Source: Pedobacter sp. UBA4863 (GTDB lineage: Bacteria; Bacteroidota; Bacteroidia; Sphingobacteriales; Sphingobacteriaceae). Taken from it: DNA of 64,000 bases. This document shows, one piece after another, positions 6,956-28,239 of the stretch. The stretch spans positions 66,091 through 130,090 of the forward strand of contig NZ_DHDZ01000036.1 of assembly GCF_002399615.1 (NCBI RefSeq). The letters run 5' to 3'. Within the stretch, counting starts at the first letter, position 1. Every line of letters starts with the position of its first letter. The notes under the pieces are model-generated. The model was given only the letters and a program-made list of their open reading frames with translations. It was not told where the DNA came from and did not search any database. The position numbers and the translations under genes were made by a program.

Positions 6956-8302
6956 ATGGAAAGAAGAGATTTTATAAAAAATGGAGCGATGGCTGCGGCC
7001 GGAATTACTATTTTGCCAACTGGATCTTTATTCGCGAAAGATACTAAAAAGGTACGGTTAGGGTACATTGGAGTTGGTGCACGCGGCATGAACCACATTA
7101 GAGAAGGGCTTTTAAGAGACGATGTAGAAATCGTAGCTTTTTGCGATACTCAAGAATGGGCATTAAGCAATTGTAGAAAAGCAATCGCAAAAGCGGGCAA
7201 ACCCACTGCCAAAGAGTACACCGGATCTTTAGATGCCTACAAAGCAATGGTCGATAGAAAAGATATTGATGCAATTATTATTTCTACGCCTTGGCAATTT
7301 CACCACGAGCAGGCCATTTACGCGATGACTGCAGGAAAATATGTGGGCTGTGAAGTAATTGCTGGCTTAACGGTTAAAGAACATTGGGACATTGTACGCA
7401 CCTCTGAAAAAACGGGAATGCCATACATGACCTTAGAGAATGTATGCTACCGTAGAGATGTAATGGCAGCCCTAAACATGGTAAGACAAGGTTTATTTGG
7501 TGAGTTGTTACACTTAGAAGGTGGCTACCAGCACGATTTAAGAGAAGTGCTATTTAATGATGGAAAAAGATATTATGGCGGAGGGGTAGAATTTGGCCCC
7601 AAAGCAATGAGCGAAGCACAGTGGCGTACGCAATTTAATATTGATGTCGATGGTGATTTATATCCTACCCATGGTGCAGGCCCAATTATGCAGTACATTG
7701 ATATCAATAGAGGCAACCGCTTTACCAATTTAGTTTCTTTTAGCTCTAAAGCTAGAGGACTGGCCGATTACGTAGAAAAAAAATCTCCAGGACATCCAAA
7801 TGCAAAAATTAATTATAAAAATGGCGATATCACTACCACTTTATTAAACTGTGCAAATGGCGAAACAGTAATGTTAACACACGATACGCATTTACCTCGC
7901 CCCTATTCATTAGGCTTTAGGGTGCAAGGAACCGATGGTTTGTGGATGGATGTGAACAAGTCTGTGCACATTGAGGGTGTTTCTAAGCCACATGCTTGGG
8001 ATAAGGCCGAAGAGTGGTTTAAAAAATATGACCATCCGCTATGGAAAAAATATGAAGCTACTGCTGCCGGTGCGGGTCATGGGGGTATGGATTGGTTTGT
8101 TTTTAACGCTTTTATTCTTGCAGTAAAAGATAAAAAGCAAACGCCAATAGACGTTTACGATTCGGTAACCATGAGCGTAATCACACCGTTATCTACCAAA
8201 TCGCTTAAAGAAGGAAATAAACCTCAGGAATTTCCAGATTTTACCCAAGGAAAATGGAAAACCAAGAAAAACACATTTGCGCTAGACGATAGCGGATACT
8301 AA
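6956..8302 (+). CDS. Tat-exported Gfo/Idh/MocA oxidoreductase-fold glycosidase, GH109-like (alpha-N-acetylgalactosaminidase-like)
   Basis: Twin-arginine signal MERRDFIK; GYIGVGARG Rossmann motif; ENVCY, LYPTHG and GHGGMD motifs typical of GH109. Confidence 0.8.
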   Translation: MERRDFIKNGAMAAAGITILPTGSLFAKDTKKVRLGYIGVGARGMNHIREGLLRDDVEIVAFCDTQEWALSNCRKAIAKAGKPTAKEYTGSLDAYKAMVDRKDIDAIIISTPWQFHHEQAIYAMTAGKYVGCEVIAGLTVKEHWDIVRTSEKTGMPYMTLENVCYRRDVMAALNMVRQGLFGELLHLEGGYQHDLREVLFNDGKRYYGGGVEFGPKAMSEAQWRTQFNIDVDGDLYPTHGAGPIMQYIDINRGNRFTNLVSFSSKARGLADYVEKKSPGHPNAKINYKNGDITTTLLNCANGETVMLTHDTHLPRPYSLGFRVQGTDGLWMDVNKSVHIEGVSKPHAWDKAEEWFKKYDHPLWKKYEATAAGAGHGGMDWFVFNAFILAVKDKKQTPIDVYDSVTMSVITPLSTKSLKEGNKPQEFPDFTQGKWKTKKNTFALDDSGY

Positions 8303-20220: not shown

Positions 20221-21942
20221 ATGAAAATGATTAAGAAGAACATAGCCTTGGCCACAGGTTTATTATTGATGGGTAGCACTGCCTCATTTGCGCAAAGTTT
20301 AGCTGATGCTAAGAAAGCGATTGATGCTGAACAATATCAAAAAGCAACATCGATGCTAAAAACATTGGTGGCAAACCAACCTAAAGTAGGAGATAACTAT
20401 TTTAATTTAGGTAAAGTTTATTTATTAACAGATGATATCGACTCTGCAAGAGCAGCTTTTACCAACGGAACTACTGCCGAGCCTAAAAATGCTTTGAACT
20501 ATGTAGGTTTAGGCCAAGCAGATTTAATTGATAATAATGCAACCAATGCTAAAACAAATTTTGATAAAGCGATTAGCTTTAAAGCAAAAGATTATGCAAC
20601 TTATTTAGCCATTGGTAGAGCTTATATAGATCAAAAAAATGTTGATTATGCACAAGCATTGCCAAATTTACAAAAGGCAGACGAGTTAGATTCTAAAGAT
20701 AAAGATCCTGAAACTTTCTTGGCCTTGGCAGATTTTTATGCCATGCAAAGAAAAAATACAGAGGCGTATCCTATGTACCTGAGAGCTTTAGATATTAACC
20801 CTAATTTATATAGAGCTAACGTACAAATTGGCAAGATGTATAAAGACGCTTTTGCTTTTCCAGAGGCAGAAGCTGAAATTAAGAAAGTAATTGCTGCAGA
20901 CCCGAATTACGGCCCTGCTTACAGAGAGTTGGCAGAAACTCAAATGCAGTGGTCTTTTGCCGATCCTAAAAATGGTGAGGCTAAAAGAACCGAAGCTTTA
21001 GAGAACATGAGAAAATATCTAGACTTAACCGATAAGTCTTTTGACTCTCGTTTACGTTACGCCCAGTTTTTGGTATATGCCAGTGATTTTGCAACTTTAG
21101 AGAAAGAAGTTGCTACCTTAAATGCACCAGATGCCAATAATCCTAAAACCTTTGTGGTAATTAGAATGAGAGGTTATTCTGCCGTTGAGAACAAAAACTA
21201 CGAGCAAGGTATCAAATACATGAACGAGCTATTTGGTAGAACTCAAGATGCTGCTCGTATCATCGGTTCAGATTACTTGTACTTGGGTAGAGCGCAGCAA
21301 AATTTAGGGCAAGATAGCTTAGCGTTTATTAATATAGCTAAAGCAGTTAAATTAGATTCTACTAAAGTAGATGCACTTGCCGAAATAGGAAAGAAATTTT
21401 ATGAAGCAAAGAACTTTCCTAAATCTGCGGAGGTTTATAGCAAAGTAGTAAATGCTAACTCTAAAGATCCTAATATTGCAATGAACTACTATTATTTAGG
21501 TGCATCTCACTATTTTGCTTATGCTTTTGATGTTAGGGATAATAAAAATCCGACTAAAGATGCATTAGTAAAAGCAGATACAGCATTCTCAAATTTAATT
21601 AGATTAGCTCCAGACTATGAGACAGCTCATTTATTTAGAGCACGCATAAACAAAAATTTAGACAATGCTGAGACACCAATAGGACTAGCAGTGCCATTTT
21701 ACAGTAAATACATCGAGTTGGTTACAGTATCTAAGCCAGAAAAAGCTGCAGCAAGCAAAACAGGTCTGGTAGAAGCTTATAATTATTTAGGAGCATTTTA
21801 TGCAAATACAGATAAAGAAAAAGCAAAAGAGTTTTTTAATAAAACTTTAGCACTTGATCCTCAAAACGCATTAGCGTTAGATAACTTAAAATATCTAGCA
21901 GGCCCGGCCACGCCAGCAAAGAAAACACCTATTAAGAAGTAA
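20221..21942 (+). CDS. Secreted tetratricopeptide repeat protein
   Basis: Signal peptide (SFAQ); many TPR-like helical repeats. Confidence 0.85.
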   Translation: MKMIKKNIALATGLLLMGSTASFAQSLADAKKAIDAEQYQKATSMLKTLVANQPKVGDNYFNLGKVYLLTDDIDSARAAFTNGTTAEPKNALNYVGLGQADLIDNNATNAKTNFDKAISFKAKDYATYLAIGRAYIDQKNVDYAQALPNLQKADELDSKDKDPETFLALADFYAMQRKNTEAYPMYLRALDINPNLYRANVQIGKMYKDAFAFPEAEAEIKKVIAADPNYGPAYRELAETQMQWSFADPKNGEAKRTEALENMRKYLDLTDKSFDSRLRYAQFLVYASDFATLEKEVATLNAPDANNPKTFVVIRMRGYSAVENKNYEQGIKYMNELFGRTQDAARIIGSDYLYLGRAQQNLGQDSLAFINIAKAVKLDSTKVDALAEIGKKFYEAKNFPKSAEVYSKVVNANSKDPNIAMNYYYLGASHYFAYAFDVRDNKNPTKDALVKADTAFSNLIRLAPDYETAHLFRARINKNLDNAETPIGLAVPFYSKYIELVTVSKPEKAAASKTGLVEAYNYLGAFYANTDKEKAKEFFNKTLALDPQNALALDNLKYLAGPATPAKKTPIKK

Positions 21943-21960
21943 TTTTTATAAGTAATTAAA

Positions 21961-22068
21961 GAGGCTGTCCAAAAAGTTCGGACAGCCTCTAATTTATACA
22001 GGGTGCCTAATGGAGAAAATTTTCATACATCCGACTATGGAATAGACTTTCCTTTTTTGGACAGTCTC
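21961..22068. repeat. Inverted-repeat element/terminator (GAGGCTGTCCAAAAAG … CTTTTTTGGACAGTCTC)
   Basis: Hairpin gaggctgtcc…ggacagcctc at 21961..21989, plus a second complementary arm at 22052..22068. Confidence 0.55.
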
Positions 22069-22092
22069 CTTTATATAGAAATAAATTGTTCT

Positions 22093-22536
22093 TTAATGCA
22101 GCTTACCGGATAGAAGTTTTTTTAATTCTTCAATTTTCTTGTTTTTTCTGCAAATTTTTTCTTCGAGTTCAGTAATTCTGTGTTCTTGTTGTTGTAAAAT
22201 CGTTTGTATTAAATCATACTCACTTTGAGCAATGCTAATAGTTTTATAATGGGTGCTACTATTTGAATTATTGAAAAAAACATCAATTGGTTTTTTTAAA
22301 ATAGAGGCAATTTGCTTTAAGCGGTCTATAGAAACTTTGACAGTTCCGTTTTCAATTTTATGATAAGCACTTTGACCAATGCCCAATTGGTTAGCCATGT
22401 ACTCTTGAGTTAAGCATTTTTCATCGCGATATCTTCTTATATCCTCTAATGAAAAGTTATTGTTTCCACCCCAAATCTTTTTTAATTGTTCTCGGGATAC
22501 AGGTTCCGCATTTACAATGATTTTTTTTAACTCCAT
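22093..22536 (-). CDS. XRE-family HTH regulator with N-terminal double-glycine leader-like peptide and C-terminal coiled coil
   Basis: ATG at 22536 gives MELKKIIVNAEPVSREQLKKIWGG, then the Cro/C1-type HTH (IRRYRDEKCLTQEYMANQLGIGQSAYHKIENG…LKQIASIL) and a heptad-rich tail. Confidence 0.85.
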   Translation of the reverse strand: MELKKIIVNAEPVSREQLKKIWGGNNNFSLEDIRRYRDEKCLTQEYMANQLGIGQSAYHKIENGTVKVSIDRLKQIASILKKPIDVFFNNSNSSTHYKTISIAQSEYDLIQTILQQQEHRITELEEKICRKNKKIEELKKLLSGKLH

Positions 22537-22654
22537 TTGATTTTGCTTTATCACCTTAAAGTTAGATAAGATATATTAAAACTGTAGGAATGAATTTATT
22601 CCTGTGGCTACTTAATTCATTACAGTATAATTTTCTATCAAATGTTTTTTCGAA

Positions 22655-22662
22655 TACATTTG
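22655..22662 (+). promoter_or_regulatory. -7 promoter element for the precursor peptide gene, embedded in an 8-bp inverted repeat
   Basis: TACATTTG; TCAAATGT(22638..22645)-N10-ACATTTGA(22656..22663). Confidence 0.55.
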
Positions 22663-22736
22663 AATATGTCAGTCTATATGACATCGCCAAAGCAGTCAAG
22701 CGTGATTGAATGTATAGAGTTTATTAACTATTCAAA

Positions 22737-22988
22737 ATGTTTAAAATGAGAAAACTAACATTAAACAAGATTAACTTTTCGGGAGCCACAGAACTGACTC
22801 GCGAGCAATTGAAAAAGGTTATGGGTGGCTACACAATGATTGGTGCTGGAGGATGTAGTAGTGATAGTGACTGTGCAACTGGTCAATCATGTTGTCCTGA
22901 TAATCAAGGTGGAGGTTATATTTGCCAGTATTCAGGTATTGTTGAATTACCAAGTGGAGGCTCAGCTGTTTTGCCTTGTCAGAATTAG
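22737..22988 (+). CDS. Double-glycine-leader (Bacteroidota natural-product-precursor type) peptide with six-Cys core
   Basis: Leader …KINFSGATELTREQLKKVMGG; core with C-x5-C-x5-CC-x9-C-x17-C. Start may be the ATG at 22746. Confidence 0.8.
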   Translation: MFKMRKLTLNKINFSGATELTREQLKKVMGGYTMIGAGGCSSDSDCATGQSCCPDNQGGGYICQYSGIVELPSGGSAVLPCQN

Positions 22989-23001
22989 TTGCATAATTAG
23001 C

Positions 23002-23030
23002 AAAGGCAGGATTTGTAATCCTGCCTTTTT
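23002..23030 (+). terminator. Intrinsic terminator after precursor peptide gene
   Basis: aaaggcaggatt-tgt-aatcctgccttttt. Confidence 0.85.
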
Positions 23031-23034
23031 ATTT

Positions 23035-23042
23035 TAATTTTG
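23035..23042 (+). promoter_or_regulatory. -7 promoter element for nuoA
   Basis: TAATTTTG(CC) directly after the terminator; implies the ORF-track TTG start at 23040 is wrong. Confidence 0.6.
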
Positions 23043-23060
23043 CCACAAATCATTACAGTT

Positions 23061-23432
23061 ATGCAAGCACAAAGTACAGCGCAAGATTTTATTCCTATTA
23101 TATTTCAGGTTATTGTAGCGCTAGGTTTCGTAGTCGTTACATTGCTAGCTACTCACCTTTTAGGGCCAAAGCGAAAAACAAAAGATAAATTAACCACTTT
23201 CGAGTCGGGGGTTAAGGTAATAGGTAATGCCCGTCAGCCATTTTCTATCAAGTATTTTTTGGTGGCCATATTATTTGTGCTTTTTGATATAGAAGTGATC
23301 TTTATGTACCCTTGGGCGGTCAATTTTAGAGAGCTAGGCTGGAATGGGATTATAGAGATGTTTATCTTCATGGGAACGCTTTTATTAGGTTTCATTTACG
23401 TGCTAAAAAAGAAAGCATTAGACTGGAATTAA
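23061..23432 (+). CDS. nuoA: NADH-quinone oxidoreductase subunit A
   Basis: FESG…FSIKYFLVAILFVLFDIEVIFMYPWA motif; ATG at 23061 preferred. Confidence 0.95.
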   Translation: MQAQSTAQDFIPIIFQVIVALGFVVVTLLATHLLGPKRKTKDKLTTFESGVKVIGNARQPFSIKYFLVAILFVLFDIEVIFMYPWAVNFRELGWNGIIEMFIFMGTLLLGFIYVLKKKALDWN

Positions 23433-27873: not shown

Positions 27874-28239
27874 ATGTCTGAAGAAAAGGCATATGATATT
27901 AAAATAAGGGCTTACCATTTTTCGAAAGCCATTATCAATCTAATATCTAAAACCAAAATTGAAAGACTATACTTTTCAATTGTTGATCAGTTAATAAGAA
28001 GTGCAACTTCAATAGGTGCCAATGTAGTGGAAGCTAAGGCGGGAAGTTCGAGAAAAGATTTTAGGAATTTTTATACTATAGCCCTAAAATCTGCAAACGA
28101 AACTAAATATTGGCTCTGCTTAATTAGAGATACAGAGGTAGTTGGAGTTGACAAAGAGATAATAAAAGAATTATTAAAAGAAGTTGATGAAATATCAAAA
28201 ATAATCGCTTCGATAATAATCAATATAAATAAAGAATAG
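27874..28239 (+). CDS. Four-helix-bundle protein (23S rRNA IVS-encoded / Avd-like family)
   Basis: DQLIRSATSIGANVVEA…R.DF..F..IALKSANETKYWL signature. Confidence 0.9.
   Translation: MSEEKAYDIKIRAYHFSKAIINLISKTKIERLYFSIVDQLIRSATSIGANVVEAKAGSSRKDFRNFYTIALKSANETKYWLCLIRDTEVVGVDKEIIKELLKEVDEISKIIASIIININKE

Follow-up and report, generated by a model that had tools for sequence, protein, structure and literature searches.

The analysed window is a 64,000-nt stretch of the genome of Pedobacter sp. UBA4863 (3.68 Mb, 37 % GC, 99.83 % complete). On its forward strand, an open reading frame of 83 codons (22737–22988) had been described in the first-pass annotation as the precursor of a double-glycine (GG) leader peptide; the frame is present in the sequence and its translation is identical to the one quoted there. 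Two in-frame ATG codons are found, at 22737 (83 aa) and at 22746 (80 aa). Because the N-termini of the relatives read MKKLTLNK... and the 80-aa and 83-aa forms are both on record in the protein collection, the ATG at 22746 is likely the start codon, which gives a product of 80 aa. The leader carries hydrophobic residues at positions -4 (Val), -7 (Leu) and -12 (Leu). The features of the locus are listed in Table 1.

Table 1. Features of the peptide locus in the window and of the export locus on contig C8.
Feature	Position	Strand	Basis or remark
Precursor gene, likely 80 aa plus stop	22746..22988	+	Alternative in-frame ATG 22737 gives 83 aa
Double-glycine leader MRKLTLNKINFSGATELTREQLKKVMGG, 28 aa, ending REQLKKVMGG	22746..22829	+	Leader HMM match
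Predicted mature core YTMIG...LPCQN, 52 aa, six Cys	22830..22985	+	Conserved Cys, WAP-like score, AF2
Intrinsic terminator: 12-bp stem (23002-23028), 3-nt loop, T run	23002..23038	+	Hairpin scan
Candidate Bacteroidota -7 box TACATTTG, perfect	22655-22662	+	Motif match only; within inverted repeat 22638-22663
Divergent XRE-family HTH regulator, 147 aa	22093..22536	-	Pfam HTH_3, E 8e-13
Leader-like N-terminus of regulator, residues 1-24, MELKKIIVNAEPVSREQLKKIWGG	22465-22536	-	Directly before HTH domain
Palindrome AGGAATGAA/TTTATTCCT	22586..22603		Predicted operator of XRE regulator
Sole PCAT locus of the genome	contig C8:21060-29371 (= L006 5060-13371)		Gene order in the text

The gene had also been credited with a promoter and a terminator of its own, and these two claims fared differently. 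The terminator, with its 12-bp stem and T run, is the sole such site between 22000 and 23200, compared with a mean of 0.5 in shuffled sequence. A sigma-70 scan, in contrast, returned six sites against 4.9 expected from shuffled sequence, and the Bacteroidota consensus differs from that of sigma-70. The candidate -7 box is located 83 nt 5' of the ATG at 22746; an exact TAnnTTTG box is present in the window only and was not found upstream of the peptide genes of the relatives. A promoter is not established, because the sigma-70 scan is close to the shuffled expectation and the exact box is without counterpart in the relatives.

The peptide gene is flanked by a TPR gene, the divergent XRE regulator and nuoA-F. 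The NuoD protein groups with named Pedobacter proteins at an identity of 90 % or above. None of the flanking ORFs encodes a transporter or a modifying enzyme adjoining the peptide gene. An immunity gene is likewise absent beside the peptide, the regulator being the only other ORF between the TPR gene and nuoA. The Rfam search of 21900–23300 gave nothing above threshold. A long hairpin (21961–22068) separates the TPR gene from the regulator gene, which converge there; it has sub-threshold, miRNA-like Rfam matches on both strands and is probably a bidirectional terminator. A 121-aa ORF (27874–28239, +) interrupts the nuo operon between nuoF and the remaining genes.

Matching of the leader relates the peptide gene to a locus on another contig, C8. 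A leader HMM was built from 33 other peptides, with the window gene left out, and was used to search every ORF of 40 aa or more in the genome, 30,012 in number. The window gene ranked first (E 1e-13, 51.7 bits), followed by two small genes on C8 (E 1e-12 and E 8e-7) and by the neighbouring XRE regulator (E 0.003); the next ORF, at E 1.1, is noise. The leaders of the C8 peptides end in ...SRAEMKKVMGG, compared with ...TREQLKKVMGG in the window peptide. The C39 peptidase domain was matched only twice in the genome, both times on C8 (PCAT, 119.6 bits, and a VKOR fusion). The genome search for same-leader precursors and for C39 genes, which the first-pass annotation had proposed as a check, thus yielded two more GG peptides and two C39 matches, all of them on C8.

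The first three genes of the C8 locus encode an HlyD-type adaptor (428 aa), the PCAT (732 aa) and a TlpA-like thiol-disulfide oxidoreductase. These are followed by a 75-aa six-Cys GG peptide, a second TlpA-like oxidoreductase and a 76-aa six-Cys GG peptide, and the last genes encode a 527-aa C39-like/VKOR/thioredoxin fusion and a plain XRE regulator. VKOR occurs in one copy in the genome, within this fusion. In the BLAST-aligned C39 stretch, a Gln of the fusion is aligned with the His in the ILHW motif of the PCAT, which is consistent with a non-catalytic, leader-docking role of its C39-like domain. The nearest relative of the window peptide by leader, P0002 (MKKLTLNKINFVGTTKLTREQLKKVMGG...), is located inside an orthologous PCAT/VKOR/Trx cluster of another genome, and this cluster has the same dnaK and methyltransferase flanks as the C8 locus. 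Regulator-peptide cassettes of the same type as that in the window adjoin HlyD and PCAT genes in two loci (L019 and L025).

The pairing of peptide and exporter spans contigs, with the PCAT on C8 and the peptide gene elsewhere. By adjacency, the gene is the orphan that it had been called; genome-wide it is not, as the matching PCAT/HlyD locus is found on C8. Given the similarity of the leaders and the status of this PCAT as the only one in the genome, the exporter and oxidases of C8 most likely act on the window peptide. The earlier description, in which a GG-leader precursor yields a disulfide-rich and probably secreted peptide, is supported, the PCAT/HlyD exporter and the thiol-oxidising enzymes being encoded in the same genome. 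An apparently orphan precursor can in this way be assigned, via leader matching, to export and oxidation machinery elsewhere in its genome. The co-occurrence of peptide and PCAT was discarded as evidence for this pairing: the figure of 57 out of 58 genomes hardly discriminates, because C39 is nearly ubiquitous in the genus (176 of the 201 Pedobacter genomes), and related genomes are not independent samples.

The predicted core is acidic (pI 4.05, net charge approximately -4), with a computed monoisotopic mass of 5114.05 Da with three disulfides and 5120.10 Da when reduced. Its cysteines are spaced C-x5-C-x5-CC-x9-C-x17-C (loops of 5, 5, 0, 9 and 17 residues), exactly as had been stated. Relatives of this core are few. 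A word-indexed search of 5.8 billion clusters matched only the window peptide and P0002, the core of which is unrelated to the window core. When 1.84 billion representatives were searched exhaustively with HMMER, 35 proteins matched at E <= 0.001; most of them have the leader alone in common, and four (P0014–P0017) share the core as well. A profile search brought five further members (P0047–P0051), so that the core family comprises at least 10 members, and the six cysteines are kept in 10 out of 10. Among the 201 Pedobacter genomes sampled, 58 had a match to the leader or the peptide, and only about seven had a match spanning the core.

The nine relatives, all with six cysteines, are 24–43 % identical to the window core. 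In the alignment of the 10 members, five Cys columns are strictly invariant, and the first Cys is offset by one residue in one sequence. The family spacing is 4–6, 5, 0, 9–19 and 14–17, and the last loop has 17 residues in eight of the 10 members. Three motifs, C[ST][ST]D[SN]xC, G[QE]xCCP and LPxG, are conserved, and every member is acidic (pI approximately 4.1, net charge -2 to -8). The first-pass annotation had staked its reading on the conservation of the Cys positions among homologues, and this conservation holds throughout the 10 members. Because nine relatives keep the six cysteines and a leader HMM built without the gene ranks it first, the small gene is real beyond chance and, to judge from its sequence, is the tagged precursor of a 52-residue acidic six-Cys peptide. 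No similarity to the tested bacteriocins was detectable in the core. The core most likely represents a peptide family that is new, in a bacteriocin-like system of a known kind, and neither a knottin nor a modified RiPP. With only about 10 matching sequences among the billions searched, this acidic, six-Cys, WAP-like arrangement is a rare new scaffold, and it extends a barely studied class, the PCAT-exported, disulfide-bonded peptides of environmental Bacteroidota.

The core had been called knottin-like. In knottins, the cysteines are connected I-IV, II-V and III-VI, with one disulfide threading a ring. All 10 family members have the six cysteines in the order C-C-CC-C-C with the vicinal CC pair that is shared with knottins, and a predicted small, β-rich fold is a further likeness. 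The consensus for inhibitor cystine knots attributed to Norton and Pallaghy (1998) is reportedly about CX3-7CX3-6CX0-5CX1-4CX4-13C; loops 1 to 3 of the family fit this consensus, whereas loop 4 (9–19 residues against 1–4) and loop 5 (14–17 against 4–13) are too long for it. The AF2 model of the core, obtained with the 10-sequence alignment, is moderately confident (pLDDT 74.9) and contains four short strands that form two β-hairpins. With a model of this pLDDT, the Foldseek search of the PDB returned nothing at E < 1, and neither a knottin nor a WAP structure was among the 50 matches listed, which is a weak negative for the knottin fold. The sole low-rmsd matches listed were the Cys-rich domains of Dkk1 and Dkk4 (Dickkopf; rmsd 1.4–1.9 Å over 27–30 columns, E 3–6).

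Pfam, by comparison, scores the core as WAP. The WAP profile (PF00095) gave 22.6 bits, which exceeds its gathering cut-off (20.8), aligned over profile positions 16–39 of 41, and eight of the 10 family members match it at E <= 0.1 (best 1.5e-5). The core shares with the WAP domain the central C-x5-C-x5-CC spacing and the CxxDxxC and GxxCCP motifs. It differs in that it covers approximately 60 % of the profile, with a partial alignment, has six cysteines instead of the eight of a WAP domain, and has much longer fourth and fifth loops; the WAP disulfide map therefore cannot be kept. The window peptide is, moreover, bacterial and carries a leader, and no structural match to WAP was found. A profile search of the PDB sequences gave nothing significant, with the WAP protein nawaprin at only E 7.8. 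The earlier label thus stands for the order of the cysteines and not for the loops, the Foldseek result or the Pfam score. Cysteine order alone carries the name 'knottin', and 'knottin' and 'WAP-derived' are both hypotheses about the fold.

The site upstream of nuoA is shared between species. The loci of P0014, P0015 and P0016 have the order exbB-exbD-exbD-tonB-PBP-TPR, XRE (-), one or two peptides (+) and nuoA, which is the arrangement in the window, and orthologues occupy the HTH/peptide/nuoA site in L027–L031 and in the genus genomes G089, G074 and G101. In G074, three tandem peptides are located at this site. Pairwise amino-acid identities across four syntenic loci are 67–88 % for TPR, 87–95 % for NuoA and 89–99 % for NuoB, compared with 35–47 % for the XRE regulator and 30–44 % for the peptide core. 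A constant slot with a fast-diverging or exchanged cargo and fixed cysteines is as expected for secreted, interaction-driven peptides. In L031, a 36-codon leader-only stub (MIKLILNKVNLEGAEPLSREQLKKAMGRNGSEWERG and a stop codon; 7577–7687) lies beside intact genes. In one genome (L035, 691–1689), three tandem, mutually unrelated GG peptides are located behind a single regulator.

The divergent regulator itself begins with a leader-like stretch. An N-terminal extension is present in all 12 of the regulator family members examined, and the pattern L-[ST]-[RK]-x-E-[LM]-K-x-[IV]-x-x-G is found at the same position in eleven homologues (47–58 % identity) and three syntenic orthologues. A true GG is found in only some of these tags; the pair is often degenerate (GS, SG, HG or AG). 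The alignment of the leader profile with the regulator N-termini by hhalign has a probability of 95.4 % and an E value of 1.6e-8 over 18 columns. In the window, four of the eight residues shared between tag and peptide leader are encoded by different synonymous codons; the likeness is therefore not the result of recent gene conversion and is kept at the protein level. In the AF2 model of the regulator, the tag extends flexibly at the N-terminus: residues 1–14 and 17–28 have a pLDDT below 50, a short helix is formed by residues 15–21, and the long C-terminal helix (104–145, pLDDT > 90) looks like a dimerising coiled coil. Tagged regulators are encoded in the window and in L019, L021–L025, L028, L029, L031, L035 and L038, each divergent to a GG-leader Cys-rich peptide gene. 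A scan of the genome contigs with the regulator found only distant XRE proteins, and the one match to include the N-terminus, in L054 (Flavobacterium), starts without a leader-like tag.

The intergenic region contains a palindrome, and a degenerate second copy of it (AATGAATT / AATTCATT, 22589–22621) is located approximately 20 bp away. The 16-bp motif of this palindrome, GGAATnAATTTATTCC, recurs just 5' of the regulator genes of L019, L021, L022, L023, L025 and L031, in one to three copies approximately 21 bp apart. In L028 and L029, its place is taken by a differing palindrome that is built alike, GCATAnnnnTATGC. The conserved palindrome is the probable operator of the regulator, and the exchange of GGAATnAATTTATTCC for GCATAnnnnTATGC in L028 and L029 suggests that the specificities of operator and regulator change together.

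Taken together, we favour, with reasonable confidence, the reading that the gene encodes the 80-residue precursor of a secreted peptide that has disulfides as its sole modification, is cut, exported and oxidised via the C8 locus, and resembles bacteroidetocins and class II microcins. In the sequence, a 28-residue double-glycine leader of the Bacteroidota type precedes an acidic core of 52 residues, the six cysteines of which are invariant. The C39 domain of the sole PCAT (C8, 732 aa) would recognise the leader and cut after Gly28, and the core would be exported via the PCAT, the adjacent HlyD-type adaptor and a putative outer-membrane channel. Its three disulfides would be formed by the oxidising enzymes of C8, namely the C39-like/VKOR/thioredoxin fusion and the two TlpA-like oxidoreductases; the catalytically degenerate C39-like domain of the fusion could dock the leader. 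The C8 locus offers an exporter and a disulfide system and no other chemistry, and the peptide is therefore read as a disulfide-only product. Transcription would start from a divergent control region that is shared with the XRE repressor, which would bind the conserved palindrome. The mature product is predicted to adopt a compact fold of two β-hairpins that resembles a truncated WAP domain.

Bacteroidetocins are proposed class IIf bacteriocins of Bacteroidota, of which 19 have been described (Coyne et al. 2019, PMC6671954). Their loci encode a PCAT and a 5-TM protein along with the GG peptide and a thiol oxidoreductase. Experiments have demonstrated processing at the GG as well as a change in mobility upon reduction, the latter consistent with disulfide bonds (PMC6671954). 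Their leader has 15 aa and their core approximately 42 aa, with four cysteines in bacteroidetocins A and B (PMC6671954), and their target is BamA (PMC8546649). Class II microcins are GG-leader peptides that are exported by PCAT, MFP and TolC (Parker et al. 2025, PMC12219008). The window peptide shares with the bacteroidetocins the nature of a multi-Cys GG-leader peptide of Bacteroidota without obvious immunity gene. A PCAT, a dedicated thiol oxidoreductase and a multi-TM protein encoded with the exporter would be common to both, and the combination of GG-leader peptide, PCAT and thiol oxidoreductase is present in this genome, but in trans on contig C8. According to their description, bacteroidetocins differ in leader length (15 aa against 28 in the window peptide) and core (42 aa and four cysteines against an acidic core of 52 aa and six cysteines), and the window gene is located away from the exporter and paired with its own XRE regulator.

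Class II microcins of Gram-negative bacteria, for example MccV and MccL, resemble the window peptide in the small GG-leader precursor, in the predicted export by PCAT and HlyD-type adaptor, in the anionic, Gly/Ser-rich disulfide core and in the rapid divergence of the core behind a conserved signal. The small GG-leader precursor, PCAT and MFP of the class II microcins are found here, but the adjacent immunity gene is not, and phylum and leader type are different. The three predicted disulfides of the window peptide would further be formed via a dedicated VKOR/Trx enzyme and not via DsbA/B. By analogy, the window peptide would work like these two groups, and its role would most likely be the antagonism of related bacteria via a surface receptor. 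Protease inhibition and signalling are possible alternative roles.

As a cell-to-cell signal, the peptide would leave the cell via the PCAT, and the divergent XRE regulator would sense it, either directly or through intermediates. Divergent pairs of regulator and peptide are known from the streptococcal Rgg/SHP and ComR/XIP systems, and the divergent pairing with an XRE regulator is conserved here in at least nine loci; the lack of an adjacent immunity gene and an acidic core that is atypical of an antimicrobial peptide point in the same direction. We regard this role as unlikely, however, since the regulator consists of an HTH and a coiled coil only, with no TPR or other peptide-binding domain, and the import of a ligand with 52 residues and three disulfides is improbable. 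The core also diverges much faster than the HTH domain of the regulator, and one to three unrelated peptides are found behind a single regulator. Similarly improbable is a role as a secreted WAP-type protease inhibitor, by which the producer would be protected or the exoproteases of competitors blocked. Elafin and SLPI are inhibitors of this type, and the Pfam score above the cut-off, the matches of eight of the 10 members at E <= 0.1 and the CxxDxxC-x5-CC spacing, identical to the central WAP motif, all favour it. Against these stand the restriction of the match to profile positions 16–39, the loss of the WAP disulfide map with six cysteines instead of eight, the absence of a WAP structure from the Foldseek matches listed and the E value of nawaprin; the Pfam match may go back to nothing more than a common Cys pattern.

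Two further explanations concern the gene product and the gene itself. In another option of the first-pass annotation, the peptide would be a modified RiPP, acted on by a remote enzyme of the radical-SAM/SPASM or lanthipeptide type. This is now highly improbable: searches of the 99.83 %-complete genome for SPASM, LanC-like and LanB-N domains gave no match, the LanB null being the weakest, as that model found nothing in the control genomes. Ser, Thr and Cys are abundant in the core, and the leader weakly resembles class I lanthipeptide leaders (E 0.1–0.2) and TIGR04149 (GG_sam_targ_CFB, a radical-SAM-target family), the latter at 19.4 bits, which is below the cut-off of 25, and with no partner SPASM in the genome. 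The leader family, in contrast, co-localises with VKOR/thioredoxin enzymes and not with radical-SAM enzymes. It is very unlikely that the cassette is a relic, silent or in decay, without current function. Peptide genes do turn over at the site, as with the stub in L031, and the cassette is far from the exporter, but the frame is intact, the six cysteines, leader and terminator are all present, the cysteines do not vary among approximately 10 diverged members, and the location is shared between species. The disulfide-bonded, PCAT-exported peptide continues to be the reading that we prefer.

The tag on the regulator raises an additional, tentative possibility that goes beyond this reading. The XRE repressor may carry a decoy export leader, onto which the PCAT or the C39-like domain would dock, with cleavage or expulsion of the repressor, and the cassette would then be portable and exporter-gated. 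If the repressor is docked, cut or expelled by the exporter or the C39-like oxidase, detached precursor genes would stay off unless the cell has export machinery that suits them and is unoccupied. Such an exporter-gated cassette would be, by a similarly speculative analogy, a FlgM-like checkpoint applied to type I/PCAT secretion. No paper that describes a leader-tagged regulator was found in the literature, and the tag is the part of the system that could be truly new. If the tag is functional, gene expression would be coupled to a type I secretion system in a manner that is new, and the leader-tagged repressor family is a more consequential lead than the peptide. The regulator-peptide cassette is found in at least four genomic contexts, among them beside HlyD/PCAT (L019 and L025) and upstream of nuoA.
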